Source: Schizochytrium sp. TIO01 (taxonomy: Eukaryota; Protista; Bigyra: Labyrinthulomycetes). Taken from it: a stretch of 64,000 bases of DNA. Below the pieces are notes generated by a model. The model ran no database searches. It was not told where the DNA came from and was given only the letters and a program-made list of their open reading frames with translations. This document shows positions 26,244-51,176 of the stretch, one piece after another (position 1 is the stretch's first letter; the number at the start of each line of letters is the position of its first letter). Position numbers and translations under genes: made by a program. The DNA is taken from the NCBI GenBank assembly GCA_004764695.1, contig SMSO01000014.1, positions 3,219,648 to 3,283,647 on the forward strand. Reading direction: 5' to 3'.

Positions 26244-26370
26244 AAAGTAAAGTAAAGTAAAGTAAAGTAAAGTAAAGTAAAGTAAAGTAAAGTAAAGTAA
26301 AGTAAAGTAAAGTAAAGTAAAGAAAAGAAAAGAAAAGTAAAGCAAAGCAAAGCAAAGCAAAGCAAGCAAG
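26244..26370. repeat. (AAAGT)n / (AAAAG)n / (AAAGC)n pentanucleotide microsatellite
   Basis: Directly visible, about 15 perfect AAAGT units followed by variants. Confidence 0.97.
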
Positions 26371-31983: not shown

Positions 31984-32361
31984 TTAGTGTTTACGAAGTC
32001 CTAATTTCTCTTTTGTGTGGTCTTTTGTGATTGCCCAAAACACAATCATAGCCTCAATGTGTTGCAGCTCGCTTATAATGGATTGGATATTAATATTTGT
32101 TGGCATTCTTCCGTCGTTGTCATTATGATGGAGATCAGATAATGTGTAAAACATGATATTGAGGATTTCCCAAAATTCTGCGGCTGTTAAATCCTGGAGA
32201 ATAATTTGTGAAAACTGATTTGGAAAGTATGGTTTGGGTAAAAAGCTTCTCAATGCATTAAGGTACAATTTTTGTGAGCATGTAAGGTGAACGTCCTGTT
32301 TCCTTTCAGCATACCAGTTCCAGATTTCATGAGAGAAGACAATGTCATTGACAATTAGCAT
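31984..32361 (-). CDS. Hypothetical protein (125 aa), first ORF of the island
   Basis: ATG in A-rich context (AAAAACAAATG), divergent from the metalloprotease with a 92-bp gap. No recognisable motif. Confidence 0.5.
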   Translation of the reverse strand: MLIVNDIVFSHEIWNWYAERKQDVHLTCSQKLYLNALRSFLPKPYFPNQFSQIILQDLTAAEFWEILNIMFYTLSDLHHNDNDGRMPTNINIQSIISELQHIEAMIVFWAITKDHTKEKLGLRKH

Positions 32362-32453
32362 TTGTTTTTAGCTGGTTGAAATTGTTTGCACCTATGTTAT
32401 TTTGCGCTGGCAATATATAGTAAAAGCAATGAGATTACTTATTATTAGATAGA

Positions 32454-35445
32454 ATGATCCGGTGTTTGCTTTTGGTTTTGATTGTTGGATTTGTTGATGC
32501 GAGCACTTATAGCAATGGTGTGACTACAGATACAATTCGAGCGGTCAGAATTATACCCAACAGCAGCTACTCTTCATTGGTTCCGAGTGATGAGATCATG
32601 GCCGATATAGGCAGCGATTTGAGTACGTTCTATTACTCAAGTTCTGGTGGTAGTTTTGATGTTCACTTATCGGTTGATGAGACTACCTATGTGATGGAAT
32701 CTTTTAGCATTGATGAATCAGATAATTGTTACATCAATGGAGTAGAGGTGACTTCGAGTAGCATGCTTGTTTATGAAGAAGCGTTTGCTCTCGCGGAAGA
32801 TAGTGCAAATGCGTCTACATATGACTCTGTTGCTCTGTTCACCCCTTATTGTAACCTGGGGTATGTTGGAGTTGCTTATGTTGTTGGTTCTCGGTTACAT
32901 ATGAACGTTGCTGCAAGTTCAGTGAATTCAACCGCTTATCTCATGGGAGTTTTAGCGCATGAGTTTGGTCACAATCTTGGTTTGCTGCATGCTCATGCTA
33001 TTGATGGAGAATATGGTAATGAATATGATGAGATGGGTTCAAAGGCTGTTAGCTCAATTTAGTACCTACTACAAGTACTTTTGGAGGTGGATTCCGGAAG
33101 AGAGTATTTTGCAAATGTCACATGGTTTGTATTGCGAAGCAGACGAGTCTTGTGTAAGTGATGATACAACTGTGTGGCTCTATGCTCACGATACAGGAGA
33201 GGGGTTTAATTCATCTCTGTACTACTGTATTTTTTATCGGTTGGAGTATCCAAATACATACATGACGTTGGAATTCCGATCACTCTATGAGAGTGATCTT
33301 CCAGGCGTGATGATGGAATGGGTAACAAGGCGTTATGAAGATATTGCAGGTCCTAGTTACTTGATCGATCCAACTGGCTTGCCCAGATTGGTGACTGATA
33401 CAACTGGAGCTGCTTTTGTCCCTGTAAATTCTACCTATGTGTATGATTATCGCGAGGGAGGAAATGCAGTTGCGGTGACTGTCTTAGAACTTGATGAGGA
33501 TACTCAGCGCGTGAAAGTCAGAGTAAGGCATATGAATAAAAGTGCCAATGATGCAGATGAATTTGAGAATGAACTGCAAAATTTGGCTTCTATTTCTTGT
33601 GGCGACACAGTGAATTTTACAGAAGCGGTGGGGCGTACATTGTTTCATTTGGAAACTCCCAACCCTTCAAAGGTTTCTTTGAATGTAACTTGTGGTGGCT
33701 ACCTAGACGCTTACATTTTTGGAGGCAAACCATTTCATCTATTCAGTGATAGTCAAGGAGAATTTAACCTTGCCACATTTAATTCGACTAGCTTGTATGA
33801 TTGGAATCGGGCATTTGATGTTTCCGGTGTTGAACACTGTTCTGCGGATGCTTGCAATGTTGCTTTAACGGTTTCTCCATTTCTACGTTATGCGGGCGAG
33901 ATGATCTTTTATGCTGTTCCTGGAGTCTCAAGTGGACCCGCTGGGACTGTTTATGTGAATGACCAATATGAAGTGTACCTTAAATCAGTGTACATGGGGT
34001 ACTATGGGATTTATTATTATTGCTGGGTCTTTTACACCAGCTTGGCATGCGGTTCGTTTTACGGATTGATCGGTTCGAACACACTCATTTATCTATCCGA
34101 ACTTACGGAGGACGATATTGCTTTTACTAATCCTATTACCACCAGCTCTTCGCGAAGTTGGACGTCCGCGTGCAGTTCTGAAAGCCGGGCTGCAGATTTA
34201 CAAAATGCTTATGCATACCTTACCCGATACTTTACTGAAAATTTTGAGGTACGCACCTTTGCAAATGACAGTACCTATCTTCTCATTATGGGCGGCATAG
34301 ATGGTGCTACTGCGGAAGTTGTTTGTGATGTGATTTACTGTGGTAGTAATATGTTCATGAATGAATCGAGTGGTCTTTGCGAACCATGTGGTCAAGGTAT
34401 GATGTCGGAACCGAACAGCACTAGCTGTGTTGTGGATTGTTCTTATCTAATGCTGGAATCTCCATACGTGAGTTCAACTGGAGTGATGAAAACGACGGGT
34501 AAATATGTAGATTTAAAGGATTCTTGGGAGTTATATTCTAATGGTGGACGGGATACGAGTTATTTACTATACTTCCTTAATACTCAGGGGTGGGTTCTTG
34601 GGACTGGTTCTGTTGCTTCTGCAGCCTATTCTTATGAGGTGAGTGCGAGCAATTACCGACATCCAGTGCTCGGTGAATCTGGAGTTGAATCTGGATATTC
34701 CTTGACATGTATGTGTGCAGATTTCCCTTATTGTGGAGAATGTGATGGTCTTGGCGATGGTGCAATGGTAAGTCCTCTCGGTGGTACCTCTTGTTTTGTT
34801 CCGTACGAATTTATCTACGTAACATCTAGTGAAAATCATAGTATAGCAGGGAATTATAGCTTCAGCACTATGACAGATGGTTATCCAGTTTTTAGCTCTG
34901 CGAATTATACTCTGACTCGTGATTACTCTGTTGAGTGGTCGTTCGTTGCTCTTGTTAACTCTTCGATTGTGGCCACGAAGTCGGAAAGTATTAGCGTTTT
35001 TTGGCCAACGAATATTAGCAGTACAACGGCGTGGTCAACTGGTTATCTTTCTATTGCTCCACAAGAGAACTCTCTTGTCATGCAGGACATCTATTCTTCA
35101 ACATTTTTTGCTATAACTCCTGCACCAACATCGTCACCTACTATGCCGACGCCTTTACCAACATCGTCACCTACAGTTTCACCCACGGCTCCAACTCCTG
35201 CACCAACAATGAGACCTACGCTTGGAAATCCTTCTTCAGCACCTACGATTTCAGATGATACTAGTCTTTCTTACTTAAAGGAACTGTTTGAACAAATTGG
35301 TTCAAATCATATTTATCTAGGTCTCACAGTCGGTGCACTTTCTTTGCTCTGTTTTATGGTGATTTATCGTTTTGTTTATTATAATAGGTCTCATCAGATT
35401 GCAACACAGTATAATTTCGCGAATCAAATTGATGACTTTTCATAA
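32454..35445 (+). pseudogene. M11 (gametolysin)-like metzincin type-I membrane metalloprotease, split by one frameshift near 33050
   Basis: ORF1 has a signal peptide, HEFGHNLGLLH zinc motif and Met-turn YGNEYDEMG. ORF2 continues AQFSTYYKYFWRWIP (typical post-Met-turn FxxxxKxxxxWI), then a Cys-rich CxxC module, a PTxxPT mucin stalk, a TM helix (IYLGLTVGALSLLCFMVIY) and a short tail. Could be a real lesion or a sequencing indel. Confidence 0.8.
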
Positions 35446-35469
35446 ATGTTTTATTTTTAATTGAGGTTT

Positions 35470-37617
35470 TCATTTTGGAGTTGTTCTTTCCCTCTCCAAC
35501 GCAAGTCGAAGTCTAGCAATCTCTCGACTAGAGCTTAGTGCGAAGTCTTCCTCACTCATTTCTGACTTGCCAACGGACATGCCGAAGTCGATGATGACAG
35601 GCCTTTGAGTTTCCTTGTTGTATAGGATATTACGGGTCGCCACATCACCATGCAGTACACCATGGGAGTGAATGTCATCGAGAGCATCCACTGCCTTTTC
35701 CACAAAGTCATCGGTGATGTCTTCAGGTCTTAAAGGTTCGCCAGAATACTTTGTTCCGAGGCCGTAAAGAAATCTTTCATCGAAAACGCCACAATCGATG
35801 AACACTGGGATGTGTATTCCTTGCAGCGGTTCTAATTGCTTGTAAATTTCAGCTTCATTGTCAAGTTCGTGCATCTGATCTGCTTGCTTAACAAGGTCCA
35901 ATACCTTCACCACGTTGTCGCTCTTATCATCTCCTGCTTCGTGGAAGTTCAAACGAAATACTGCCCCTGTGCGACCGGGTGAAAGCGCGGTGCACCCAGC
36001 CTTGCGTAGCTTGACTAGTTCGACCGCTTCACCATCCTTTGTATATTTTGCACCATACTTATTTAGTGTCGAAGAAGGTGGTCGTCCATTTGGTGACGAA
36101 GTCCGTGGTGATACATTTTTCGGCCTCTTTGGGTCCTGTACGCTATCACATTCACGTGGTAGATCTTTCCTACTAATCGAATCATCCGATTTGCAGGGAA
36201 CCATCATAGAATTTCCATAACCTCGGAAATCCATAACTTGTTCATCAGCAGCGAGAAGAATAGCGAGTGCAACGAGCTGCAACGTACTGATTTTCTTATT
36301 TTCAGTATCACCCTCTTGATCCCATAAAATAGCTTCCGTGATAAGCAGATGTCCCCGCCCGTCTCTAATGAAAACATGAGTGTGTATATAGTTCGTGTAA
36401 ATACCAACCAAAACCTCATTCAAAACCATGTAGTTGTAAAGTTGACGAATGACCGAATGGTCTTCATGCCGCTGTGAACCACAGAGAGGATTTAGGCATT
36501 CTTTATTACAATAATCATTAGCGAGTTTAGCAGTGGTGGGAAACCCAGGACCTTTGAATTCGCCCATGATCAACGGTTTGCGGTTACCGTCTTCTGACTT
36601 ACAATTGATAGCAAAGTCTGCGCGACCTACTAGTCCTCCAGTCACAAGGTTTCCATACAAAGAGAGATCTTTAGGAATGGAATTGTTTTCAGTGGACGTC
36701 TGATTGAGTGCATGTGTTAGACATAGGATGGCATTTGTAAACGCTTTATCGACTGAACTTTCATTGTTAAGTTTTGCGTAGAGACCATAATTTGCAAATG
36801 TATTGCCAAAGTCGACTGTAGTCTCGACGTTATTCAGGATATTAATGTAGCCATGGTCTTCACAATAATCCCAGAAATTTGATGGAGAAAAATTATCCGC
36901 CTGCAAGGGTGATACAGGGTATGATATTAAGTTCGCAAGACTTGTCTTGTTTGCGGTTAATTCACCCTCCTGTTCCCAGTTTGGTAGATGTACTTTGGTG
37001 GCATCCATCATCTTCTTCGGTTCCGGAGATGACTGTAACCGTTCTCTTAGCGTTGAGATGTCTTCATCGGTAGAGGTTATAAGATCATGCACTTTTGCAA
37101 GGCGTTGTTCTTTGGCAACAATGTCTTGCTTGGTCACTTCTAACGACTTTTCCTTTTGGAGAATTTTTTTGGACAAATTCACGCAAAGGGCAAGAGTATC
37201 GTCCTGTATATCATCGGGCGAGTACCCGTACCTCCTCTGGAACGATTTTGACTTGATCTCACCACGACAGAAAGCATCGAGAAAGTCGTAGTCGTCCTCA
37301 TTTCCTAGCTTTTCTTTAAGTTTTTTCTCGATTTGCTCGATTTCTTGCGAAAGCTTGGCTTTTTCATCCTTGAGGTCCTCAAGTGCTCGATCCATACGCT
37401 TGTACTCCTCAATCTTTTCTGCATTCAAAGTTAAAGACCGTTGCAAGAGGGATTCATCATCTCTTGGGAGTGTGCTTACGCGCCTGAAAGTGGTGCGTCT
37501 GTTTGGATTGTTTGTGAACATCTGAATTGATGAGGGGCGAGATTCACGTCTACTAGCGGCACTCCTTGCGAAATTGGAGGCTGCATTTTTTAACCCCTTG
37601 ATAGTAGCACCTATCAT
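35470..37617 (-). CDS. Coiled-coil header + PD-(D/E)xK restriction-endonuclease-like domain + minimal protein kinase (Crinkler/CR-effector-like), copy 1
   Basis: REase-like: NESSV, GRADF, IMGEFKGP, VIRQLYNYMVLN..GIYTNY. Kinase: SPGRTGAVF, VVKVLD, NEAEIYKQL..LQGIHIP, LHGDVATRNILY, IIDFG. Confidence 0.85.
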   Translation of the reverse strand: MIGATIKGLKNAASNFARSAASRRESRPSSIQMFTNNPNRRTTFRRVSTLPRDDESLLQRSLTLNAEKIEEYKRMDRALEDLKDEKAKLSQEIEQIEKKLKEKLGNEDDYDFLDAFCRGEIKSKSFQRRYGYSPDDIQDDTLALCVNLSKKILQKEKSLEVTKQDIVAKEQRLAKVHDLITSTDEDISTLRERLQSSPEPKKMMDATKVHLPNWEQEGELTANKTSLANLISYPVSPLQADNFSPSNFWDYCEDHGYINILNNVETTVDFGNTFANYGLYAKLNNESSVDKAFTNAILCLTHALNQTSTENNSIPKDLSLYGNLVTGGLVGRADFAINCKSEDGNRKPLIMGEFKGPGFPTTAKLANDYCNKECLNPLCGSQRHEDHSVIRQLYNYMVLNEVLVGIYTNYIHTHVFIRDGRGHLLITEAILWDQEGDTENKKISTLQLVALAILLAADEQVMDFRGYGNSMMVPCKSDDSISRKDLPRECDSVQDPKRPKNVSPRTSSPNGRPPSSTLNKYGAKYTKDGEAVELVKLRKAGCTALSPGRTGAVFRLNFHEAGDDKSDNVVKVLDLVKQADQMHELDNEAEIYKQLEPLQGIHIPVFIDCGVFDERFLYGLGTKYSGEPLRPEDITDDFVEKAVDALDDIHSHGVLHGDVATRNILYNKETQRPVIIDFGMSVGKSEMSEEDFALSSSREIARLRLALERERTTPK

Positions 37618-38075
37618 GGTGTTCGAACGATTTTTGAGGTGTTCGAACGATTGGGTTTTGCTGCTCTTGAGAACTAGGTTTGGATGCTTCCTCTATTGTT
37701 TATACTTGATTTACTAATGAATGGTACTAGTAGATATTCTTACTTATTTATTTGTTTCTTACACACAAACCCATGTCTTCTTCTACACTGCACGAGGGAT
37801 AAATTATAAAACAACCTCTGAATATCATTACGATCTATATAGGTGAAATAATATGCTAAGTATTCTTTTTTTAAAATTACTAGCTAGTATTTTGCGAAAC
37901 CCATAATAATCCGCGAATTAAAGTCTGCAGTGCTCGTTTGCATAACTTTGATGCCGTGGCTGGTGGCGTGGCCGCAGCGTCCACGAATCTATTTCTCTCC
38001 TCGCACGCGCCGTATGCCGTGTGCGCGCACGCACACGCGCTCATTCTACCCATCTCTCCCTCCACTGTTCGATCA

Positions 38076-38550
38076 CGCAAGTCAAACGTTGTGATGATTC
38101 GATGCAAGTGGGTAAGATCGATGCCCCCGCTCGCCAAGGCCAAGGACAACTTTCCATGCATCGTTTGACTGCGTAAGTCGAAAGTTGTGCAGGTTGTGCT
38201 GGCTCGTGCCGGTAGGTAGGAGAAGAGAAGATCGGTCATCGACCTTGATCAAGCGTAAGTCGCGAGTTGTGCAGGCAGTGCTAAGCAGGAGAGGAGAATT
38301 GAAGATCGGCCCTCTCAGTAGCCCTTGATCGATCGTTTGATTGAGTTGTGCAGGCAGTGTTGTTTGAGACTTGAAGAACGATCCTCTGACTCGCCAGTGG
38401 TAGAGGTTTGACTACTTATCTTTCGATCGCCTAAGTCGAGAGTTGTGCAGTTTGTGGGATGAGAGAAGATCGATAGATAGATACCCTCCCTCGCTCACTA
38501 ACTCTCAGTAGACCTTGATCATTAGATCGCGTAAGTCAAAAGTTGTGCAG
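38076..38550. repeat. Degenerate iterated array, core CGTAAGTCRNRAGTTGTGCAG about every 80-100 bp (6 units)
   Basis: Cores at 38076, 38172, 38254, 38343 (partial), 38430 and 38530. Sub-motifs GAGAAGATCG and CTCTCAGTAGACCTTGATC recur between them. A more eroded equivalent lies at ~49820-50197. Confidence 0.8.
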
Positions 38551-38629
38551 AGGGGTAAAGAAGAAAGGGAGACATCATGGGACGAGTTGATGAACCAAAA
38601 TTTGACATTCAGAAACTAACTTTGACAAG

Positions 38630-39395
38630 ATGGATCAGTCGGTTCAAGATTCGATTTATCGAATTTACCTAGTAAAAGCGATAAAGCGCCTGATTTGATT
38701 TATAACATTGTTACTTTCATTGAAGGTGTAGAACCAGTATATACGCCAGACGGATTGCCGACACACAATTTCTTAAAATGTGCTTTGGAATTTGCTCTAC
38801 AGTACAAACCCCGCTACATTGATTGTGTCAACGAACTTGTGGATCTGGAGGGCTTTACCTTTTGGTTATCTGAACAGAACGCATCAGAGCTTTCTACTCG
38901 CGGAGTGATTCTTTTGAAACTGGTTCTGGTAATCAAAAGATAAAAACATTGAAAGTCTGGGGAAGTTGAGGACGGAGATGTCTAAACTGTTCATGGAGGT
39001 TGATTTTCCTTCTGGGATAATTAAGAATGTACAACTGCGTGAGGTTCCTAATTATGTTGCGGAGCGCTTCTTGCGCAATGTATTTCCATCAACTACGGAC
39101 TACCGACGCCATTATTTATACCACGAATAAACCTTTCTACCGATTCAAAAGAACCTTCTGTCAGAGGGGACATCACATACTCTAAGTCGGTGTCAAAAGT
39201 CGGCAAACGATACGGTCTTTCAAGGGTCCCGGTGGATCTGGCAAGACCCGTCTAGGTGTTGAGCTGGCAAAACATGGAGTGAACTATGTCGATGAAGATA
39301 AAAAGAAAGCTTTATCTGCGTTTATTCAGATGAATAAACACCTTTGTTTAGACTCCTCGTACTTTCGTCAAGAATATAAATTCGGGGCTCGATGA
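38630..39395 (+). pseudogene. Fragmented hypothetical ORF
   Basis: Protein-like segments in shifting frames (MDQSVQDSIYRIYLVKAIK / YNIVTFIEG...FWLSEQNASEL / MSKLFMEVDF...YRRHYLYHE / LAKHGVNYVDEDKKKALSAFIQMN) separated by frameshifts and stops. Confidence 0.45.
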
Positions 39396-39624
39396 ACAAT
39401 GTCCGTCCTGGTTGTTTGGGCGTATGCTCTCTATTTTCGGACTCCATGGATGGTGCGTTTTCTCCTGCGTATCGCTTTTTGACTAAACTTGCTTTCCTTT
39501 CCCACGTTCCTTTCTTTTTTTCTTTTTCCCCTTCAGTTCCTGTTGCTTGTCAATCTTAAAAAAAAATAAAATAAAAATGTTTGTTGCTTTTTCATGGTCA
39601 AATGAACATTCTTTTTCTTTTTTA

Positions 39625-39804
39625 TTCCTAATCATTAGAATGATTATTTTTTGACTTTTTCATGTTCATTTTTTTTTTAATTCTCAATCAAATAACATTT
39701 TTTTTTTTAAATACCCAATCATTAGAATGAAAATAGCATTCTTTTTTTATTTATTCCCAATCATTAGAATGAGAATAGCATTCTTTTTTTAAATTCCCAA
39801 TCAT
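39625..39804. repeat. ~42-bp tandem repeat containing the inverted repeat TCATT-AG-AATGA
   Basis: CC(C/T)AATCATTAGAATGA at ~39627, ~39714 and ~39756, with partial copies at ~39681 and ~39796, each followed by T-runs. Lies just downstream of the RuvC stop. Confidence 0.85.
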
Positions 39805-39813
39805 GTTTTTGTT

Positions 39814-40425
39814 TTAATTGAGAATGTCTTGCTCTGCCAGAGCATATTTTGCAAAAGGGTTGACTTCCTTCACAAGTACGATGGTGGGTAATATTGTTTG
39901 CGCATAGAACATGATATATGCCATGGCGTCACCGAGGTGGTCTTTTTGAACTGCTTTTCTGAAGGCTGGTAAAGTGTGTAAAAGTTTTGAAGTGATTTCC
40001 ACGACCTGTACGCGCCTTTCAACTTTAGATTGTGACATTTTAAAATATGCATGCATGGAGCGTGGTGAGATCAATTGGACAAAAGATGATCCTTTCCTTG
40101 CCCCAAATCTCTGCTTTAGGAAAACATGAAGAAGCTGTTCAATGTCTTTGTGAGTACTTGTGATGGGCTGCGCTTCGATGATGACTTGATCTACTTTTTG
40201 AAACCATGGTCGGAGCAGCTCCACAAAATGGTGAACGAGATGTGCGCCTTTGCGATCCTTTTCTTCGAAAGGGCATTCTTTGGGTTTTTTACATGTAAGA
40301 TTGCGAAGGTCTTGCATGTGCGCATAGACGGGCGTGATTTCAAACGTTTCATTGTCAATGTCTGCAAACGCACAGGCAAGATGGCTGAATCCCACATCTA
40401 TTCCAACGACTCGAGTAAGGTTCAT
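39814..40425 (-). CDS. Holliday junction resolvase, poxvirus A22/RuvC-like
   Basis: VVGIDVGFSHLA, VIIEAQP, LISPRSMH and KDHLGDA give the RuvC D-E-D-D active site with the viral A22-type ExQP signature. Confidence 0.88.
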   Translation of the reverse strand: MNLTRVVGIDVGFSHLACAFADIDNETFEITPVYAHMQDLRNLTCKKPKECPFEEKDRKGAHLVHHFVELLRPWFQKVDQVIIEAQPITSTHKDIEQLLHVFLKQRFGARKGSSFVQLISPRSMHAYFKMSQSKVERRVQVVEITSKLLHTLPAFRKAVQKDHLGDAMAYIMFYAQTILPTIVLVKEVNPFAKYALAEQDILN

Positions 40426-40762
40426 GTTTACTATTTTTTATTTTTATTTTTTTATAAAAATGATAATTTCGTTTATGTTATATTACTACAACGGTAGCCG
40501 AGGGCGTTTTTGTGGCTTTTTCCTTTTTAAGAAAGATGTGTGCGAGGATGAATAAAATCAGTATAAAGAACAATAGAATCGCCAAACCACCTCTGTCTAA
40601 GCCTAAAGATATTGCATTCTCCCTGAATGTGGAGTTCGTAATGTTCGACATGTAAATGTGATAAACAAACTACTAGGATTAGCGTTGATAATCTATTTAT
40701 TGCAAAATCTTCAATAACTAAACCCTTAATAGTGTGAGATTATAAAATAAAAAAGCTATATC

Positions 40763-41779
40763 ATGAGATTGAGGAGTAGTCGCGTTTATGTAGTAGATGA
40801 AACTTTAAAAAAACAATCTAAAAGAAATGAAGTAGTAGTGCATGTCAATAATGCTAAGACTAGAGAACATGTATTAGATGAAACTTTAAAAAAACAATCT
40901 AAAAGAAATGAAGTAGTAGTGCATGGCAATAATGAACATGTAGTAGATGAAACTTTAAAAAAACAATCTAAAAGAAAGAAAAGAAATAAAGTGGTAGATC
41001 CTGTTATTCGTGTATGTGGCAACGCTAAGACTATTTATAAATGTTCTCTGAGTGGTAGGGAATATTGGGTGGATAAGAACCGAGCTGGAGAAAACAGAAG
41101 AATGTATTGTGGGCATGGACGAAAACCTAACCGGTGTGTAGATTGCGATGGCACGTATATTTGTATCCACAAGAGGCGCCGTACTTACTGCTTTATTTGT
41201 GAGCCTGATTCCAAAAACCTTTGCGAACGTAAGTGTGGGCGTCTTTTATCGAATCGTAGACTTTTCCGTAGGATTCGCATTTGTTGGACGTGTGAAAAGA
41301 GAGAGGAGCGTCATATGAGACTAGAAAATGAGTGGAACGAGCGTTTTCATTCTTGGGGATTTCACCCTTCGAGCCATGATCGCATCATCAAAGATAGTGC
41401 ATGTAAGGTAGTAAACCGTCGGCGTGCTGACTTTGTTTTTTCAGATAATGACTTACCCTATTATATTGTGGTCGAATGCGATGAAGAAAGTCACAGTGGT
41501 TATGACATAGCATGTGAAATGAAAAGATTGCAGGAAATTCATGATCAGTTAATTGGTAATGGAAGAAGTGTGAAGCCTTTGGTGATTATCCGTTTCAACC
41601 CGAACTCTCGACATGAAAGCCTGGAAAAGGAAGTTAAAGGAGCCCTAGAAGATGCACTCAAAGGGCAAGTGGACTACTCTGATGCGCGTGGAGTCAATTT
41701 ATTTAAAGTGATAGGTTATGGACAAACGCGGCAAGAAAAATACAGAGAGGAGCGTCTTACCTATCGCTTAAAAATTTGA
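40763..41779 (+). CDS. Zn-ribbon repeat + PD-(D/E)xK-like endonuclease (giant-virus type)
   Basis: N-terminal MRLRSSR and three tandem V(V/L)DETLKKQSKR repeats, then CGHGRKPNRCVDCDGTYICIHKRRRTYCFIC, then RRADFVF..IVVECDEESH..Y..CEMKRL..IIRFNP. Confidence 0.78.
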   Translation: MRLRSSRVYVVDETLKKQSKRNEVVVHVNNAKTREHVLDETLKKQSKRNEVVVHGNNEHVVDETLKKQSKRKKRNKVVDPVIRVCGNAKTIYKCSLSGREYWVDKNRAGENRRMYCGHGRKPNRCVDCDGTYICIHKRRRTYCFICEPDSKNLCERKCGRLLSNRRLFRRIRICWTCEKREERHMRLENEWNERFHSWGFHPSSHDRIIKDSACKVVNRRRADFVFSDNDLPYYIVVECDEESHSGYDIACEMKRLQEIHDQLIGNGRSVKPLVIIRFNPNSRHESLEKEVKGALEDALKGQVDYSDARGVNLFKVIGYGQTRQEKYREERLTYRLKI

Positions 41780-42493
41780 CTCGATTCCACCAAAGCATAT
41801 CCACACTAAAAGCAACTTGGAGGTCAGTGACAAAAGGTTGTACCATCCATCCATAGTAAGCACTTCCTCGTCAGTTAACATGCGTTCTTCCCTCACCACA
41901 TAGATATACTGTACTAACGCAAAGCATGAAAACATGAAGAATTCAATGAAAAAAATAGCAATGACAAAGTGTGGTACGTCATGGTTGATTTCTGCAAAGA
42001 AAGACCAACTGATAATAACCCATGCGAAAAGGTAAGGAATGCAACCGAGCCAGAATGGTTTGATCATCAATCTCGATTTATCACCTGTAAAAGGGAGGAT
42101 GTCTTCTAGATACCCAAAGACCATTGTTGTCATCATGAGACCGGCAATGCCTGTGAGAGTGAAAATGTCATCTATTCTGCATAAGATTGCAATAATGACG
42201 GCCATGATCGATGCAGTGATGGAGTACTCTAAAAAGCGCATGGAGCCGATGTTTCCAATGCGAATAAGATATGCGTAGAAGCAGTGAAACGCGGCCGTAA
42301 TTCCTGAAAAGAGGGCAAGTCCGCTGAAGACTGAAGGCGTCCACCATGTGGTATCTATGTCACCTAATGTTAAGACCACTCTCCCTTTGTTTGGATCCAC
42401 TGAGAGAACAACCATAGCAATGGTAGACGCAAGGTGCAAAAGTGCACAAACAATGTTGAACTGCCATGTTGAACAATAGGAAATGATACTCAT
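41768..42493 (-). CDS. Heliorhodopsin
   Basis: Seven hydrophobic helices. His20 (ALLHL), His70 (AAFHC), RFLEYSITASIM (R86, counterion E89), MVFGYLE, PFWLG..W, VPHFV..F.F..FALVQ and YNLLSLTSK226LLLVW (retinal Lys) match the heliorhodopsin signature. Confidence 0.93.
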   Translation of the reverse strand: MSIISYCSTWQFNIVCALLHLASTIAMVVLSVDPNKGRVVLTLGDIDTTWWTPSVFSGLALFSGITAAFHCFYAYLIRIGNIGSMRFLEYSITASIMAVIIAILCRIDDIFTLTGIAGLMMTTMVFGYLEDILPFTGDKSRLMIKPFWLGCIPYLFAWVIISWSFFAEINHDVPHFVIAIFFIEFFMFSCFALVQYIYVVREERMLTDEEVLTMDGWYNLLSLTSKLLLVWICFGGIESNF

Positions 42494-42554
42494 AGACTAG
42501 TCATTATATGTATAAAGTGAATCTGAATTATAATAATAGTAGCTGGCTTACATC

Positions 42555-45500
42555 ATGTCGGACGCGGTTTACGAGGATGTGCTTAGGCGGGCAGTTCGTC
42601 TAAGAGATGAAAACCCACAGTTCAAGCGTCAACTCAATCGAATCATTCTCCACATAACCAACAGTATGTCGTATGCAGAGGTTCTTGAACAGAATGCGAA
42701 ACTAGATGAATTTGATCATCAGGTTGAAGATGGTACGAATGAAGGTAGTAAAACCGTGCAGGATGCTGAAAATACGCTACCTGAGTCTCCACAATTGCTT
42801 GCTCAAACATCAGGGGACGGGAAAAAGAGAGGACGGTCGATTGTCAAAAAGGAGGATAAAGAGTTGAACGCTTCGCTCACAAGAGAATCAGAGCAATACT
42901 TGAAGGAATTGTTAACCACAAAGGGTTTTCATAAGCTAAAATCTTTCGGTCCAGCTATGTTGGAGTGTTTTGGATTCGATGATGGCAACTATTTGGGTTA
43001 TTCTTCGGCGGATGCGAGGGTCTATGAGATTGTTCATATCCTCGAGGATATCATCAATAAAACAAGTCCTGATCAAGAACATGTTTCGATTCATATTGAA
43101 ACTAATATTACTTATCACGTTACAACTCAAAGATTTCATAACTTGGACGACACTGTCAATTTTATTTACAACATTCTTGTAGAAGATCCGGATGAGGCTA
43201 GATACTATTCGTTACCAATTGTTCTAGATAATTTTGAAGATGATTCAAGTGAGGAAGATGATCAAGAAGAAGATGACCTCCATGCAAATCTTTTAATTTT
43301 AGATTTAAAAGAGCATTCTGTCATTCATTTTGAACCACACGGGAGGGGAACACGGCTGTATGATGTTGAAGTGTTCACAGCAAGGATGAGGGAATTAGTT
43401 GAAAGGTCATTTAGGAAGTTCAATAAACAAGAGAAAACAAAGTACTTTCTGTTGGATGTGGGGTCAGGGTCTGAAGCAGAAGAGAATTCAGAGAAAGATG
43501 GGATTCCCTGGAGATTTCTTACAAACTTAAGTCAATCATTCGGCCGTATCGGTCCTCAATCAAGTTCAGGGCGTTGGTACCGCCAGAATGTTAACTTACG
43601 CGTTACGAAAAGAACATCTGATCTTGAGACTCTTTGGACGCAAAGACTCACAGACGGATTCTGTTTCGCGTGGTGTTTGCTAGTTACCTATGTGGTCTTG
43701 GCTCCAGTTGATTATACTGATGCTAAATCCAAAGTAGGATTCAAAGGAGAATTTGGGGAGGCCTCTGCTGATGGAACCACTTTGCGTGACAGGTTTGACA
43801 TCACTGCCGAAAGTTTTGATCCTACTCTTCTTTTCGATCGATTTGTGAATTTCCACAATTGCTCAGGCGAATTTATGGGACAGACCATGCTGCGCTTTGC
43901 AAGTTTTATCGCTAAATGTGATAAAACTCTCATTCGGGAACTGGCTATCTTTGGCGATCAGATAGAAATTGACGAGGGTGACTCGAGGACATTATCTGAA
44001 GAACTCATCCCCGTGCGACTAACTTCACTAATGAGTCCTTACTTTGAGCATGTTGAAATTTTATCGACGAGAATTTCCATGACTCCTGGAAATATTGTCA
44101 TCCCTCCAAATGTAATCAATCTATTGTCTCATCATGCAGACAGTGGCGATTCAAGCAATTCTCCAGGGTCCTTGTCTGGTTATGCACAAATGGTCATCGT
44201 AATCGTTCAACGGGACAACGCTTTATTGTATTTGATGCTTTCACCGCGAAAGAGGCAGTACTGTATTCAATTCACTTCCGATAGTCTCTTACAGCGCATT
44301 CCTATCGATGAAAGTCTTGATCGAGAAATTGAAAACTATGGTAAGGGTACATGGAAGAAACAATTATTAAATACGAAACAATTGGTTCCGACGAGTTCAA
44401 TGGTTGATGGCTTTGCGCTGAATTATGAATCCTCGACATTAAGCACTCTTGAACGTCAGTTTCTTACCATACTATTGCAAGTTTGGTTGTTTTGTGTTGT
44501 TCACATTTTGAATCCTCAAGTCGATGGGGGGGACTTATTCGAAATGGTCAAGTTGAAAGATGCAATTTTAGATGATTCTGATTTTGCGGTAGTCAAGTTT
44601 AAATTGATTCGAAAAGATGCTCAAAATAGGCGCTTAAATTGGACAAAGCTAGCCTTGCTCAATAGGTTCAGACTTTACCTTTTGGACGGTCTTGAGCTGG
44701 AATATTGGCAGTCCATAAAGCGTTACTCAATCGATATCATTCCTGAATCTTATAAAGAAGCGATCGATGAATCCTTGAATAGTAGCGAATTTATAGAGGA
44801 GCTTGATGGAGAAATCATCCCAACAATCCTATCTCAGTTGGACACTGAAGATCCTGAAGACATGCAATGGTTAAGCTCAATGACTAAACTAAGGGATTTG
44901 GGGATTATGTACAAATTATGTGAAGGTTATTCAGAAGTTAATGAGAATAATGCCGATGAAGTGCTCGCTCTGTTTGATCAGATTCTGAATTATAAGTACA
45001 TGAAAGTGCAGGAGGTCATTCCCAAATTACTCAACAATCTAGATAACGAGGCAATTCGATCAATGGACGAATCATCAGTGTCGTCTAGTGTTTACTTTAA
45101 AGTTGTGGTCCATTATCTAAAGGTTTTCATGCCCGGTGCTCCTTTGGATACCATCACTGGCTTGATCTTGTGCGCTTCACTTTTGAAACATATTCCTCAT
45201 TTTTGGATGATTGTTGCAAAATCCTACATGGAATGCATTGACATGGTATCCACTAATGATTTTACCAATGGCTTCGAGCAATTGTGTATTGCGAGTCAAA
45301 TGACCATTTCTTTGAAAATGTTCCCCCGTAAGACTTTCATCATGAAAAAGGTGAATTTCAGAACCTTTAGAAAAATGTTTGACGAATCTATTCAACAGAA
45401 GGAGGTGATACAATTTCAAGAAATCTTCCAGTCATTGGAAGCGGATTTGGAACCGTTATCATGGGTGATGAAACAAGTACCACCTGAGCAATTTCCTGAT

Positions 45501-47141
45501 GTGATCTTGGCAATTTTTGACAATGATAGCATTCCTCCATCTAGCAAGTCTACTTTATTCGGTCTTAGAGGTATAACATCTAGCATGGTTTACGATGCCA
45601 TTCTTAAGCAGGCAGATAAGGTTGCGGATTTTTCAAGGAAGTTCTTCAACTTGGAATATGGTACTCACTTCTTCAGAGACAACGAAAGGTCAGCTAAATT
45701 TTTCTTGTTGGAACTCATAGATGCTTATCCTAACATGTATCTTCCATACTTTACTACACATGATATGTTTAGGAGTATCATGACTGCTGAATCGCTCTCT
45801 TTTAATGAAAAGCTAATGGATATAGAGAGGATCAGTAATATCATCGACATATTTTACACATACAAGGAAATTTTGAATTCAGCCAACTCATCAATTGATG
45901 ATCTTATTTCTAAATTAGACGGTAGCACTTTTGATAGGTTGATCCTCCTGCATGGACTAAGAAAATTTAAAACGTATGATGACGGCGATCGTGCAGATCT
46001 AATACACAATCTACCAAACTTATTAAAGGGTGATTATTTTATGTTGTCTTTGCAGCGCGAATTGGCTCGTCGACTAAATCTTCTAAGGAACGAACCTTTT
46101 CTCGGTACCGAGATTGCTTCAACGGATCATCACTCATATCGCTATGATGTTCTTCCGCACTTTCACTCTTTGCCTGAGCAGAAGAATATGCACAAAAGAA
46201 TATCGCACCTGTACTTAAGAGAACAAACAGAACATTCATACACAGCTCCTCACAAAGATCCTGATTCACGAAGTAGAGGATCAGTAGGAGAAAGGGGATT
46301 TCAATCAAAGGAAGGAGTAGAAGAAGAGGAAGGGTCAGAAGAAGGGTTGGAAAAGACAGTGCAGGGTAAAGCATATAGAGATGAATACAGAAAAGTAAAC
46401 AATAAACAAAAAGGTACAAACAAAGGCCCTGTGTTAGACTTAGACGTGATTGTTGAGCAGAACTATCCGCCATCTTTATTCAAAAGGATTCAGAAGGATA
46501 TTTATCGATGGAATTTGATACTTCGTGTAGCTGATGGAGAAGATTTTTTAAATAATAATGAGTCTCTTGTTGAAAGCGATTTGGATGAATCATCAGATGA
46601 AGAAGAACAACCGTTTGACCACGCCATTGCAAATCGTAGTACTTTATTTTTGAGTGAAAATGAGGGGCATCATTCTGCAGAATCTCAAGAAGAAGAGGAT
46701 TCTGAAGAAGAAGAAGAGGATTCTGAAGAAGAATCTGAAGAAGAAGAGGATTCTGAAGAAGAAGAGGATTCACAAGAAGAAGAGGATTCACAAGAAGAAT
46801 CTGAAGAAGAAGAGGATTCTGAAGAAGAAGAGGATTCACAAGAAGAAGAGGATTCTGAAGAAGAAGAGGATTCTGAAGAAGAATCTGAAGAAGAAGAAGA
46901 TTCACAAGAAGAAGAATCTGAAGAAGAGGAGGATTCACAAGAAGAAGAATCTGAAGAAGAAGAGGATTCACAAGAAGAAGAATCTGAAGAAGAGGAGGAT
47001 TCACAAGAAGAAGAATCTGAAGAAGAAGAGGATTCACAAGAAGAAGAATCTGAAGAAGAGGAGGATTCACAAGAAGAAGAATCTGAAGAAGAAGAGGATT
47101 CACAAGAAGAAGAATCTGAAGAGGATTCCCACGAAGAATAA
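42555..47141 (+). CDS. Large hypothetical protein (1528 aa) with N-terminal cysteine-protease-like motif set and acidic repeat tail
   Basis: HANLLILD..IHFEPHG..GPQ..DGFCFAWC places His, Glu, Gln and Cys in clan-CE order. The C-terminal ~150 aa is E/D/S/Q repeats. Confidence 0.8.
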   Translation: MSDAVYEDVLRRAVRLRDENPQFKRQLNRIILHITNSMSYAEVLEQNAKLDEFDHQVEDGTNEGSKTVQDAENTLPESPQLLAQTSGDGKKRGRSIVKKEDKELNASLTRESEQYLKELLTTKGFHKLKSFGPAMLECFGFDDGNYLGYSSADARVYEIVHILEDIINKTSPDQEHVSIHIETNITYHVTTQRFHNLDDTVNFIYNILVEDPDEARYYSLPIVLDNFEDDSSEEDDQEEDDLHANLLILDLKEHSVIHFEPHGRGTRLYDVEVFTARMRELVERSFRKFNKQEKTKYFLLDVGSGSEAEENSEKDGIPWRFLTNLSQSFGRIGPQSSSGRWYRQNVNLRVTKRTSDLETLWTQRLTDGFCFAWCLLVTYVVLAPVDYTDAKSKVGFKGEFGEASADGTTLRDRFDITAESFDPTLLFDRFVNFHNCSGEFMGQTMLRFASFIAKCDKTLIRELAIFGDQIEIDEGDSRTLSEELIPVRLTSLMSPYFEHVEILSTRISMTPGNIVIPPNVINLLSHHADSGDSSNSPGSLSGYAQMVIVIVQRDNALLYLMLSPRKRQYCIQFTSDSLLQRIPIDESLDREIENYGKGTWKKQLLNTKQLVPTSSMVDGFALNYESSTLSTLERQFLTILLQVWLFCVVHILNPQVDGGDLFEMVKLKDAILDDSDFAVVKFKLIRKDAQNRRLNWTKLALLNRFRLYLLDGLELEYWQSIKRYSIDIIPESYKEAIDESLNSSEFIEELDGEIIPTILSQLDTEDPEDMQWLSSMTKLRDLGIMYKLCEGYSEVNENNADEVLALFDQILNYKYMKVQEVIPKLLNNLDNEAIRSMDESSVSSSVYFKVVVHYLKVFMPGAPLDTITGLILCASLLKHIPHFWMIVAKSYMECIDMVSTNDFTNGFEQLCIASQMTISLKMFPRKTFIMKKVNFRTFRKMFDESIQQKEVIQFQEIFQSLEADLEPLSWVMKQVPPEQFPDVILAIFDNDSIPPSSKSTLFGLRGITSSMVYDAILKQADKVADFSRKFFNLEYGTHFFRDNERSAKFFLLELIDAYPNMYLPYFTTHDMFRSIMTAESLSFNEKLMDIERISNIIDIFYTYKEILNSANSSIDDLISKLDGSTFDRLILLHGLRKFKTYDDGDRADLIHNLPNLLKGDYFMLSLQRELARRLNLLRNEPFLGTEIASTDHHSYRYDVLPHFHSLPEQKNMHKRISHLYLREQTEHSYTAPHKDPDSRSRGSVGERGFQSKEGVEEEEGSEEGLEKTVQGKAYRDEYRKVNNKQKGTNKGPVLDLDVIVEQNYPPSLFKRIQKDIYRWNLILRVADGEDFLNNNESLVESDLDESSDEEEQPFDHAIANRSTLFLSENEGHHSAESQEEEDSEEEEEDSEEESEEEEDSEEEEDSQEEEDSQEESEEEEDSEEEEDSQEEEDSEEEEDSEEESEEEEDSQEEESEEEEDSQEEESEEEEDSQEEESEEEEDSQEEESEEEEDSQEEESEEEEDSQEEESEEEEDSQEEESEEDSHEE
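46680..47138 (+). repeat. Coding tandem repeat (21-33 bp units, GAAGAAGAGGATTC...) encoding EEEEDSQEEES
   Basis: Directly visible. A regular 33-bp unit appears in the 3' half. Confidence 0.95.
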
Positions 47142-47215
47142 TTTAAAGAAGAGAATCATAGTATAATTTCGTAAATGATAACTTTTCCTTTTTTAAAGAA
47201 GAAATACAACAACTG

Positions 47216-50197
47216 TAAATGTTTTAGTTTTTTACTCCTCTTACTTTGCCCAACGAATGTCGAAGTTCATTAATCTCTTGATCGGCAGCTCTTGCGAAGT
47301 ATTCATCACTCATTTCCATCTTGCGAACGGCTATGCCGAAGTCAACTATGACAGGCCTTTGAGTTTCCTTATTGTATAGGACATTGCGGGCATCCACATC
47401 ACCGTGCAATACACCTTGGGAATGAATTTCATCGAGAGCAATCACTGCCTTTTCCACAAAGTCATCAGTGATGTCTTCAGGTGTTAAAGGTTCGCCAGAA
47501 TATTTTGTCCCAAGACCGTACAGAACATCGCATTCAAAAAGGCCATAATCGATAAATTCAGGGATGTGTTCGCCTTGTAGCGATTTTAACTGTTTGTAAA
47601 TTTCAGCTTCATTTTCAAGCTCTGGTATCTGTTCTTCTTGCTTAAAGCAATCCAGTATCTTCAAAACGCTGTCGATCTTCTCACCTGTTGGTAGGGGGAT
47701 ACCAATCCGAAGTGTCCTACCCGTGCGACCGGGTGGGAGTTCAGTGTACCCATCAAGTTTTAATAAAGGTAAATGAATCGACGCCCCATCTTTGCGGAAA
47801 TGTTTAGGGTCCTCGGAATTTTGATTTTCGTGCTTCTCTATCTTCGCGTCATTACTGGCTTTACACACTGCAGGTAGAACGACGCGTTCTGGAGTCTGCC
47901 CCGGGCCGCCTAAACAGGGAACCAAGATGCTATTTTCAATTTCACTGAAGTTCATCTCGCTTGTATCCGCTGCGAGCAAGATAGCAAGTGCGATAAGTTG
48001 CATCGAACTGAGTTTGCCGCGAGCGATATCACCAACATCTTCAGCCCGAACAGACTTTGTGATCATTAGATTTCCTTCACAGTCCCTGATAAGAACACAA
48101 GTCACTTTGTAGTTCGAGTAGACGCCAACCAGTAGACCATTCAAAAACATGTAGTTGTATAGTTGACGAACAACTGAATGCTTTTTATGACGGTCTGAAT
48201 CACATCCAGGACAGTCATGATCACAATAAGTCTCACTGAGGTTGTCGTAGGAGTACTTCTCACCAGGACCTTTCAACTCACCTACGATCAACGGAATATG
48301 GGTACCATCTACTGTCTTAGCAGCAAAAGAAAAGTCTGCTTTACCCTCTATTCCTTTCGGGTCAGCCGTATAGATGGAGACCTCATAAGGGACTTTTTCG
48401 TTGGATTCTTCGGTCATGGCTTCTGTTACAAGAAACATAACCTGATCAAATGCTGTCGTGACAGTTGCTTCGTTTGAGAATGTTTTTTTATTACTCATCC
48501 TTTCAAAGACATCTTCGAAGTTGACGGTAGATTGCAGTTCATTCAGAATATCAATGTACCCTTTCTCGTTACTGTAGTGCACGAAAGACTCCACTAACAA
48601 AGGTCTGACCTTCGCAGGCGAAGCGGGGTAATTTTCGAGGTTCGAGATATCTGTCTTGCTTGTTCGTATTTTGGGTGAATCCTGAACATTTGGTAGACGA
48701 TGACTGGTGACCGACAGAAAATTTTGCGGTTCCGTACGAGAAATCAAATCACTTAACCTCCTCACTTCAGCTTGGTGATCATCGATTATGTCCTGCGTTT
48801 TTGCAAGGCGTTGTTCTTTGGCAAGAATTTGTTGCTCTTTCACTTCTAACGACTTTTCTTTTTCGATAATTTTTTTGGACAAATTCACGCAAAGGGCAAG
48901 AGTAGCGTCCTGTATATCATCGGGCGAGTACCCGTACCTCTCCTGGAACGATTTTGACTTGATCTCACCACGACAGAAAGCATCGAGAAAGTCGTAGTCG
49001 TCCTCATTTCCTAGCTTTTCTTTAATTTTCTTCTCGATTTGCTTGATTTCTTGCAAAAGTTCGTCTTTTTCAGCCTCGAGGTCCTCAATTTTTCGATCCA
49101 TACGCTTGTACTCCTCAGCCTTTTCTGCATGCAAAGTTCTAGCGTCGGCCAAGAGGGAAGCTAATTCCTGATTCAAGACTACGTGTTTCATAGGAGTGGG
49201 TCTGTCTGAATCGGTTGTGAACATCTGAATTGATGAGAGGCGGGGTTCTCGTCTTCTAGCGGCACTCCTTGTCTGGTTGGTGATCTTGGAGGCTGCATTT
49301 TTTAATCCCTTGATAGTAGCACCTATCATGGTGTTCGAACGATTTTTGAGGTGTTCGAACGATTGGGTTTTGCTGCTCTTGAGAACTAGGTTTGGATGCT
49401 TCCTCTATTGTTTATACTTGATTTACTAATGAATGGTACTAGTAGATATTCTTACTTATTTATTTGTTTCTTACACACCCTCAAATCAAACCCATGTCTT
49501 CTTCTAATGACTCATACACTGCACGAGGGATAAACTATAAAACAAGCTCTGAATATCATTACGATCTATATAGGTGCAATAGTATGCTAAGTATTCTTTA
49601 AAAAAAAATTACTACTCAAGAATAAAATGTAGTTATCTTTCATAGTGCTAGTATTTTGCGAAACCCATAATCCGCGAATTAAAGTCTGCTTTGTTGCATA
49701 ACTTTGATGCCGTGGCTGGTGGCGTGGCCGTGGCGTCTACGAATCTATTTCTCTCCTCGCACGCGCCGTATGCCGTGTGTGCGCACGCACACGCGCTCAT
49801 TCCACCCATCTCTCCCTCCACGCAAGTCAAACGTTGTGATGAATCGATGCAAGTGGGTAAGATCGATACCCTCGCTCGCCAAGGCCAAGGACAACTTTCC
49901 ATGCATCGTTTGATTGCGTAAGTCGAAGGTTGTGCTGGCTCGTGCCGGTAGGTAGGAGAAGAGAAGATCGGTCCTCTCAGTAGACCTTGATCAAGCGATT
50001 TGTGCAGGCAGTGCTAGGCAGGAGAGGACAATTGAAGATCGGTCGTTTGATTGAGCAGTGTTGTGTAAAAGAACGATTTTCGCCAGTGGTAGAGGTTTGA
50101 CTACTCATCTTTTGATCACCTAAGTTGAGAGTAGTTGTGCAGTTATAGAAAGATGGATACCCTCGCTCACCAAGGACAACCTTTGATCAATCGTTTG
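47216..50197 (-). repeat. Duplicated ~3 kb REase-kinase cassette, copy 2
   Basis: 49320-49477 matches 37608-37765 essentially base for base. 48801-49040 closely matches 37096-37335. Upstream GC-rich and iterated motifs are shared. Confidence 0.92.
47224..49329 (-). CDS. Coiled-coil header + PD-(D/E)xK REase-like domain + minimal protein kinase (Crinkler/CR-effector-like), copy 2
   Basis: NEATV, GKADF, IVGELKGP, VVRQLYNYMFLN..GVYSNY; PPGRTGRTL, VLKILD, NEAEIYKQL, LHGDVDARNVLY, IVDFG. Paralogue of 35470-37617. Confidence 0.85.
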   Translation of the reverse strand: MIGATIKGLKNAASKITNQTRSAARRREPRLSSIQMFTTDSDRPTPMKHVVLNQELASLLADARTLHAEKAEEYKRMDRKIEDLEAEKDELLQEIKQIEKKIKEKLGNEDDYDFLDAFCRGEIKSKSFQERYGYSPDDIQDATLALCVNLSKKIIEKEKSLEVKEQQILAKEQRLAKTQDIIDDHQAEVRRLSDLISRTEPQNFLSVTSHRLPNVQDSPKIRTSKTDISNLENYPASPAKVRPLLVESFVHYSNEKGYIDILNELQSTVNFEDVFERMSNKKTFSNEATVTTAFDQVMFLVTEAMTEESNEKVPYEVSIYTADPKGIEGKADFSFAAKTVDGTHIPLIVGELKGPGEKYSYDNLSETYCDHDCPGCDSDRHKKHSVVRQLYNYMFLNGLLVGVYSNYKVTCVLIRDCEGNLMITKSVRAEDVGDIARGKLSSMQLIALAILLAADTSEMNFSEIENSILVPCLGGPGQTPERVVLPAVCKASNDAKIEKHENQNSEDPKHFRKDGASIHLPLLKLDGYTELPPGRTGRTLRIGIPLPTGEKIDSVLKILDCFKQEEQIPELENEAEIYKQLKSLQGEHIPEFIDYGLFECDVLYGLGTKYSGEPLTPEDITDDFVEKAVIALDEIHSQGVLHGDVDARNVLYNKETQRPVIVDFGIAVRKMEMSDEYFARAADQEINELRHSLGKVRGVKN

Positions 50198-50216
50198 TTT
50201 TATTTCAAAAGCTGTA

Positions 50217-51176
50217 CTATTCAGAGTTTATATTCATGAGTCCTCTACCAAACGCACACTGATTCGGTGCTTCTTTTTGAAGCTTATATCTATACTTTAC
50301 ATAATAATCAATGTCATTCCAACACTCAGGCTCCACTGTGCTCATAAGTAGGTACTCTTGAATGTCAGAAGCCCAGGGCGGGATGTCCAAAACATGTGAG
50401 ACAATAAAGGCTCTCTGTGTGATATCTTTCATTTTAATTTTATCCCTTAGCCATCTGTCAAATCCGTGCTTGTCACCAGTCTTTAGTATGCCATATGCAA
50501 AATTTCTCAGACCTGATACGGAATCAAAATGCCCCTTTTCACACATTAAATTAGCTCTCCAAGGTCCAACATATCTGATACAAGTGAGACACTCATCTAC
50601 AATCGTTTCTTCGTTCTCAAGATCATCAAGTTCCTTAAGCAGATCGCGCTTCGGTGCAATCCATTCTTTATAGATGTTTTCCAAAGCGAGAACGTCTGCA
50701 TCAGCTCGGTGCGCATTCTCAATAGGTTTGCCAAACATGACCTCATGAACATCCCCCAATCTAAATGATTTCATATTGGGGTAATTTTTCCTTAACCAAG
50801 GTAAAGAGTCCCAAAATTTAATTTGTTGAGGAACAACACCATTCAACTCTTTGAGGAGAATTAATTGATCAAAATATGTGTTATTGTGAGCAATCATTTC
50901 CACATAATCGAAATCCTCGACGTGGAACTCTTTAAACATTTTAGCAACAACCTGTTCGATGGTGGGTGCATCTTTGATGTCTTGGTCATGAATGTTGTGA
51001 ATCAATGAAGAATTAGGAGGAATTCCTCCCTTAAAACCGGGATTGACGAATGATATAAAAATGGGTCCATCTACAATTTTTGCGCATATTTGTAGAATTT
51101 TATGATTTTTACTAAACATTGGCATGTTCCGAAAACCGGTCGTTTCCAAATCGTATATAATATGAAGAACTTTCAT
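50217..51176 (-). CDS. DEDDh 3'-5' exonuclease (DNA Pol III epsilon-like) with C-terminal helix-hairpin-helix-like segment
   Basis: ExoI IIYDLETTG, ExoII IAHNNTYFD, ExoIII AHRADADV, and CIRYVGPWRA. Likely start is ATG 51176 (MKVLHIIYDLE), not the GTG at 51437. Confidence 0.9.
   Translation of the reverse strand: MKVLHIIYDLETTGFRNMPMFSKNHKILQICAKIVDGPIFISFVNPGFKGGIPPNSSLIHNIHDQDIKDAPTIEQVVAKMFKEFHVEDFDYVEMIAHNNTYFDQLILLKELNGVVPQQIKFWDSLPWLRKNYPNMKSFRLGDVHEVMFGKPIENAHRADADVLALENIYKEWIAPKRDLLKELDDLENEETIVDECLTCIRYVGPWRANLMCEKGHFDSVSGLRNFAYGILKTGDKHGFDRWLRDKIKMKDITQRAFIVSHVLDIPPWASDIQEYLLMSTVEPECWNDIDYYVKYRYKLQKEAPNQCAFGRGLMNINSE

Follow-up and report, generated by a model that had tools for sequence, protein, structure and literature searches.

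A mosaic pair of predicted nuclease-kinase genes in a virus-like segment of Schizochytrium sp. TIO01, with a possible Spok-type toxin-antidote function

The mosaic gene pair A and B

We analyzed a 64,000-nucleotide stretch of Schizochytrium sp. TIO01 (assembly GCA_004764695.1, contig SMSO01000014.1, positions 3,219,648 to 3,283,647 of the forward strand), hereafter the window. Within a virus-like segment of the window lie two genes, copy A and copy B, each encoding a predicted nuclease followed by a kinase. They have the same orientation and are 11.75 kb apart. A sequence-only reading had described two same-orientation copies of ~3 kb, 11.7 kb apart, with mosaic identity, and self-BLAST and the intact open reading frames (ORFs) bore out this arrangement. 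The features of the pair are as follows.

35470-37617, minus strand: copy A, intact ORF of 715 amino acids (aa)
47224-49329, minus strand: copy B, intact ORF of 701 aa, same architecture as A
37618-38556: upstream DNA of A, common with B, ending in a degenerate repeat array; likely promoter and untranslated region
49330-50200: upstream DNA of B, common with A, with the same repeat motifs
37105-37279, minus strand: header core of A (aa ~114-171), near-identical between A and B in the window and replaced elsewhere

The A and B proteins are 53% identical, and the identity is unevenly distributed: the header is near-identical, the middle falls to 30-56%, and the kinase C-lobe reaches 77%. Self-BLAST of the window returned a strong match between 37085-38452 and 48791-50144 (82% with gaps), a 79% match in the 3' coding part (35496-35998 and 47250-47752), and a weak match of 66% in the middle (36237-36637 and 47960-48355). 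The non-coding DNA upstream of the two genes is 90-100% identical per 100 aligned columns over ~0.85 kb; this homology has no sharp end and fades within an array of degenerate 80-100 bp repeats. A near-identical promoter, start codon region, and header had been claimed. This held for the upstream DNA, but the header is not uniform, as aa 15-75 are only 57% identical between A and B.

Synonymous differences, counted among codons encoding the same amino acid in A and B, amounted to 7/128 in aa 1-175, 61/153 in aa 176-590, and 19/84 in aa 591-715. The difference between the first region and the middle was pronounced (Fisher p = 3e-12), and the kinase end also differed from the middle (Fisher p = 0.009). 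Synonymous substitutions per site (dS) were 0.03 for aa 100-175, where the synonymous sites of A are nearly identical to those of B, ~1.0 for aa 176-590, and 0.47 for aa 591-690. The longest run of identical codons was 51 codons (permutation p = 2e-5). These results demonstrate that the mosaic exceeds what selection or chance would produce. Because selection at the protein level would not homogenize synonymous and non-coding sites, we infer that the 5' part of A and B was recently exchanged.

Trees were built by region, each from the sequences with enough residues there, which were 6, 16, and 13 of the 17. In the header tree, A and B were separated by 0.18 substitutions and the relative P0042 was >1.1 away. 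In the nuclease-region tree, P0042 joined B with a support of only 84/83, and the distance between A and B was ~1.5. An outside relative was thus nested between A and B in the middle-domain tree, not in the header tree. The nuclease regions of A and B are old, stable paralogs. The synonymous pattern and the trees agree with the proposal of recombination or conversion between the copies, and the recovery of similarity in the kinase C-lobe was also confirmed. In the QxxxY region, as in the kinase C-lobe, the ratio of nonsynonymous to synonymous substitution (dN/dS) was ~0.3. In the middle domain it was ~0.57 with sites near saturation, so that positive selection was not seen there, contrary to the proposal of a diversifying nuclease.

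The B stretch was present in 20 of the 24 listed sequencing runs, from 10 studies, and 7 of these 20 runs were compared with the window. Contigs of the nuclease regions were 97.5-99.9% identical to the window, with 1/894 and 1/727 differences for B and 15/825 and 36/1461 for A. The header core of A behaved differently: in 3/4 runs of one comparison set, 37105-37279 was replaced by 166 different letters, and one X4 contig spans the stretch 35644-37625. A second variant joint, 37171>37280, was found in 6/7 runs. Traces of a further, more distant paralog with bits of the A/B upstream DNA occur in X4 and X16. Contigs from very close paralogs could mimic such header-core alleles. The front end, identical between A and B in this genome but different between strains, is likely being swapped, while the nucleases are stable. 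The sequence-only reading had pictured a constant header with a variable nuclease, and the runs reversed this picture.

GT-AG spliced joints in X3, X4, X11, and X16 indicate that these runs contain RNA, although none of the runs, which were selected for containing B, is recorded as RNA. Contigs of these four runs cover A and B, which gives a weak hint that both genes are expressed there. Another joint, 38306>41261, skips 2954 bases in 6/7 runs and does not fit a GT-AG intron in either orientation; it is possibly a deletion allele or a second copy of the upstream repeat at 41261.

Protein architecture and relatives

The predicted domains and residues of the two proteins are listed below.

35470-37617, minus strand: domains of A, in order a basic N-terminus, a coiled-coil hairpin, a predicted PD-(D/E)xK nuclease, and a kinase
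37030-37470, minus strand: A header (aa 50-196), predicted to fold into an antiparallel coiled-coil hairpin whose tip is helical
36208-37020, minus strand: A predicted nuclease region (aa 200-470), from motifs and model
47950-48741, minus strand: B predicted nuclease region (aa 197-460), confident model with alpha-beta-beta-beta-alpha-beta order
35473-36015, minus strand: A kinase domain, from domain search
A predicted nuclease residues: D334/E353/K355 and Q392-x3-Y396, with a Cys/His insert at aa 369-386
A kinase residues: K571, E588, H656-G-D658, N663, and D677-F-G
B residues: predicted nuclease D332/E351/K353 and Q389-x3-Y393; kinase K557, E574, D644, N649, and D663

All catalytic motifs named by the sequence-only reading are present in both ORFs despite the diverged middle. 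The header helices (aa 50-104 and 140-196) were modeled with a predicted local distance difference test (pLDDT) score of 73-89 and matched coiled coils in a fold search. With only 2 sequences as input, the full-length model was of low quality (pLDDT 40), and coiled coils were all that it matched in a fold search. In contrast, a model of B aa 195-701 from a 20-sequence alignment reached pLDDT 86 and a predicted TM-score (pTM) of 0.87, which suggests that the nuclease and kinase domains of B pack together. In this model, D and E-x-K lie on adjacent strands after a long helix, and QxxxY lies on the next helix. This arrangement is the one expected of the PD-(D/E)xK layout. Across the family, the middle domain keeps D, G-E-x-K, the Cys/His insert, R-Q-x-Y-N-Y, and R-D-C-x-G, and a Pfam search gave no match for it. 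The kinase has all catalytic motifs, and its nearest relatives are RIO/Bud32-type kinases.

A HMMER search with the middle domain against 1.84 billion representatives gave 21 matches. Ten of them were looked up and came from MMETSP, JGI, and Logan data, with no informative names. Full-length relatives have ~700 aa and the order basic N-terminus, coiled coil, middle domain, and kinase; several other matches are broken fragments. In 13 members both domains could be assessed: 9 were intact, 2 had lost the nuclease motifs only, 2 had lost both, and none had lost the kinase motifs only. A word-based protein search found nothing with B and only P0027 with the family alignment. Viral contig scans gave no relatives of A/B, the heliorhodopsin, the resolvase, or the exonuclease, and a prokaryote genome scan gave no A/B relatives. 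Of two metagenome scans for A/B relatives, the first found none and the second found 3 loci. P0042 and P0021, the latter from a marine eukaryote transcriptome set, resemble A and B in the header but lack a kinase, and their nuclease motif is degenerate.

The surrounding virus-like segment

A and B are embedded in a segment with the following features.

31995-51761: virus-like segment of 19.8 kb, 40.8% GC (45.6% in the left flank) and ~80% coding (25% in the left flank)
39814-40425, minus strand: RuvC/A22-like Holliday junction resolvase (phrog_159, E 2.6e-8), a viral context marker
41768-42493, minus strand: heliorhodopsin (PF18761, E 1e-31), a viral context marker
50217-51176, minus strand: DEDDh exonuclease, resembling mirusvirus AurliV-2 ORF400 by eye
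51175-51774, plus strand: truncated ORF, interrupted by a solo long terminal repeat (LTR)-like repeat and by eye similar to mirusvirus AurliV-1 ORF355
51762-52178: solo LTR-like repeat of high copy number, located at the right junction; the 5-mers on its two sides differ

On both sides, the segment is bordered by eukaryotic genes poor in introns (ubiquitin hydrolase, cyclic-nucleotide-binding metallo-beta-lactamase, Mpv17, and Med31). Contigs of run X1 (0.62 Mb) cover 31995-51761 evenly and 24000-31995 almost not at all; they diverge from the window at 31995 and 51761 and extend ~7 kb beyond each point. The segment likely derives from a larger viral genome, of which it is a truncated part within a host chromosome. 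The earlier placement within a viral genome is therefore right for the neighborhood, but the viral part is a 19.8-kb segment flanked by host genes. The two by-eye homologies together with the heliorhodopsin and the resolvase suggest that it is likely mirusvirus-derived. A resolvase and a heliorhodopsin also occur in AurliV-1/-2 and in skiaviruses (SmDNAV), and a skiavirus may be an alternative source. Hallmark virion genes (major capsid protein, portal, and terminase) were not recognized among the ORFs of the segment, no capsid gene was found in the window, and an Rfam search of 30000-53000 found nothing.

Several other genes of the segment were observed. A metallopeptidase of M11/M12 type with a C-terminal membrane anchor (32454-35445, plus strand) is frameshifted near 33044 relative to X1 and X5, and several variant contigs suggest that it belongs to a multi-copy family. 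A P-loop NTPase-like gene with GxxGxGKT (38639-39395, plus strand), transcribed away from A, is broken by several frame changes; its GT-AG intron at 38531-38638 was seen in three runs. The ORF at 40763-41779 (plus strand) encodes a Cys-rich protein of 338 aa with a weak DUF2726 match, which resembles a viral endonuclease. A large ORF of 1528 aa (42555-47141, plus strand) has no Pfam match and a long acidic repeat tail; a His...Cys pattern near its N-terminus presumably represents a papain-like motif. This gene was without coverage in X3 and X17. A GT-AG spliced joint at 41855-41940 (plus strand; X4 and X11) runs antisense to the heliorhodopsin gene.

Outside the segment, the host gene at 9594-12548 (plus strand) combines a metallo-beta-lactamase fold, with a weak match to anti-Pycsar Apyc1, and a cyclic-nucleotide-binding domain. 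The repeat at the right junction is one of three related solo LTR-like repeats (51762-52178, 58590-58985, and 59063-59418) with TGCTGA...TCAGCA ends. One of them has a 5-bp target duplication: GCAGA stands on both sides of the relative near 58590-58985.

Candidate functions of A and B

The closest functional model for A and B, by analogy, is Spok rather than a strict Crinkler. Spok proteins of Podospora and Fusarium share with A and B the domain order of coiled coil, PD-(D/E)xK domain with QxxxY (predicted in A/B), Cys/His cluster, and atypical kinase, as well as a length of ~700 aa. The coiled coil is N-terminal in both, and the atypical kinase is C-terminal with its catalytic Asp. Gene conversion among paralogs is also common to Spok and, as inferred here, to A/B. 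As described in PMC6660238, a Spok protein kills through its nuclease and protects through its own kinase, in cis as well as in trans, and conversion tracts occur among paralogs; the N-terminal domain is proposed there as the specificity determinant, and the kinase is called ELK-like. SPOK1 has been described to kill via DNA (PMC9972908), and Spok genes to limit the loss of, or stabilize, dispensable chromosomes in fungi (10.64898/2026.10.04.756499; PMC12693581). In language-model features of the ESM Atlas, a single source of evidence, the middle domain scored 0.96 with fungal clusters and 0.93-0.95 with SPOK2_N clusters. Unlike the fungal Spok genes, A and B belong to a virus-like segment in what is probably a stramenopile. 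We do not class A and B as Spok, since the cysteine cluster differs and both homology to SPOK and a Spok function are putative.

We tentatively propose, at somewhat less than an even chance, that A and B act as Spok-type self-antidoted nucleases that help to keep viral DNA in the thraustochytrid. The predicted PD-(D/E)xK domain would cut DNA, and the kinase of the same chain would keep it off in cells still making the protein. A cell that lost the viral DNA would no longer be protected and would die, so that a persistent virus or an integrated remnant would be stabilized. The promoter and coiled-coil header common to A and B would govern co-expression and the specificity for partners, and the front end would be rewritten as paralogs recombine or undergo gene conversion. 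Spok logic on viral DNA would amount to an addiction module and would suit the persistence of viruses in thraustochytrid cultures; thraustochytrid mirusviruses are described as persisting without clearing (PMC12606086). A and B have both stayed intact beside a broken P-loop gene and a frameshifted peptidase gene. If the toxin-antidote proposal holds, kinase loss should not leave an active nuclease, and 0/13 assessable members are in that state, which is suggestive only.

Several points weigh against this proposal. The chance of finding no kinase-only loss is ~0.08, which is not significant, and short fragments were left out of the count; in L003, nuclease motifs are kept ahead of a stop before the kinase, with the 5' part also missing. 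None of the 21 HMMER matches is named Spok (they are unnamed or have generic names), and no sequence-level link to SPOK was found. The models matched no solved nuclease structure in fold-search lists filled by kinases or coiled coils, and profile searches of the PDB using the middle domain had no match with E below 0.08. The SPOK cluster C-x3-C-x13-C-x5-H-x7-H lies just before the kinase, whereas the main cluster of A and B, C-x3-C-x2-4-C-x4-H, lies inside the nuclease and only scattered linker cysteines precede the kinase. The segment is chromosomal and short, so that episome loss cannot be the current means of maintenance in this genome. In addition, the Crinkler/CR class of restriction endonuclease (REase) plus kinase proteins is common, carries its toxicity in the REase, and serves as effectors, according to PMC5289972.

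A and B may fall in this broad class. As described in PMC5289972, its members (e.g. CRN8) resemble them in having an REase motif followed by a kinase, a modular N-terminal part, and recombination near the header boundary, and CR proteins with alpha-helical headers exist. The Crinkler-type architecture proposed earlier thus holds for the nuclease motif and kinase but not for the header, which is an all-helical coiled-coil hairpin without LxLFLAK or HVLVxxP. A and B further differ from Crinklers in that the header is not ubiquitin-like, the type of C-terminal domain is unswapped, and there is no sign of delivery into another organism. If they were viral effectors of this class, the nuclease would attack host or co-infecting viral DNA and the kinase would tune it, with no self-maintenance. 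The architecture is consistent with this, and thraustochytrids are reported to be often co-infected by several viruses. Two Pandoravirus DUF5898 proteins aligned to the full nuclease and kinase model (E 5e-8 and 4e-7 over 522 and 502 columns), but at 11% identity and a TM-score of 0.37-0.38. DUF5898, assigned to the PKinase clan in PMC9758233, was not among the Pfam matches listed (25 of 26) for the 20 aligned members. At L002:1569-2105, a relative in a gene-dense contig directly precedes an ORF without a Pfam match that has, by eye, an NPPF methyltransferase-like motif, which also suits an effector. However, A and B have no hydrophobic signal peptide, and their coverage in runs with spliced joints, while 42555-47141 is uncovered in X3 and X17, weakly hints at expression without general viral activity. 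We regard the effector function as rather unlikely.

An action on mitochondrial DNA after import into mitochondria, compatible with either a toxin-antidote or an effector, is quite improbable. In all five full-length members examined (A, B, L001, P0025, and P0022, the last taken from an internal Met chosen by the analyst), the first 30 aa hold 6-9 basic and 0-1 acidic residues, with no clear sequence in common, and the N-termini of A and B have helical moments of 0.54-0.59. Among 11 other ORFs of the window, only the Mpv17-family protein has a similar profile. This composition test is crude and not a trained predictor, and a nuclear localization signal or a membrane-binding helix fits equally well. 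It is distinctly unlikely that the pair is a relic, in which a fragment of endogenous viral DNA, duplicated long ago, was retained either by chance or as a domesticated host kinase. The segment is truncated with broken genes and ends at an LTR-like repeat, several family matches are broken, and conversion between paralogs 12 kb apart requires no selection and could be a by-product of tandem proximity. But both ORFs are intact, their nuclease and kinase motifs were kept across ~1 synonymous substitution per site, and the low dN/dS of the QxxxY region and kinase C-lobe argues against a relic. The earlier idea of a self-copying mobile cassette with discrete ends is largely refuted already and is very improbable. 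It could draw on the two same-orientation units with their common non-coding DNA, the traces of a further paralog with upstream pieces, and the link of CR genes to transposons (PMC5289972). However, no target site duplication of at least 8 bp was found (A had a single 7-mer in ~7,600 position pairs, and B had none), there are no terminal inverted repeats and no transposase, the upstream end is ragged, and both copies have the same neighbors in run X1.

Literature listings on Spok in viruses or protists and on Crinklers in giant viruses or Aurantiochytrium gave no description of this family and no paper that links these ideas; Zhang et al. 2016 and preprint supplements may list such proteins, and the A/B family may sit in preprint supplements under a generic kinase name. 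Multi-copy or divergent kinases have been reported as common to thraustochytrid viruses and hosts, and the reported 'SPS1' or BCU09292 kinases might be members of the A/B family. Six A/B peptides were absent from the AurliV tables in the PMC12606086 supplement.

The persistence of mirusviruses in thraustochytrid cultures is reported as unclear, and a Spok-like toxin-antidote on viral DNA would offer a testable mechanism, since yeast and E. coli serve as assay hosts for Spok proteins (PMC9972908; PMC12693581). A wider, unlikely possibility by analogy is that a protist DNA virus carries single-gene addiction modules related to fungal spore killers, which would retain the persistent virus in all daughter cells and in which swapping of the coiled-coil header between paralogs would switch which viral genomes coexist or exclude each other. 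The strain-variable header would provide a natural allele set bearing on where specificity is encoded. If the toxin-antidote proposal is true, single-gene toxin-antidotes would occur beyond fungi, in a eukaryotic virus.
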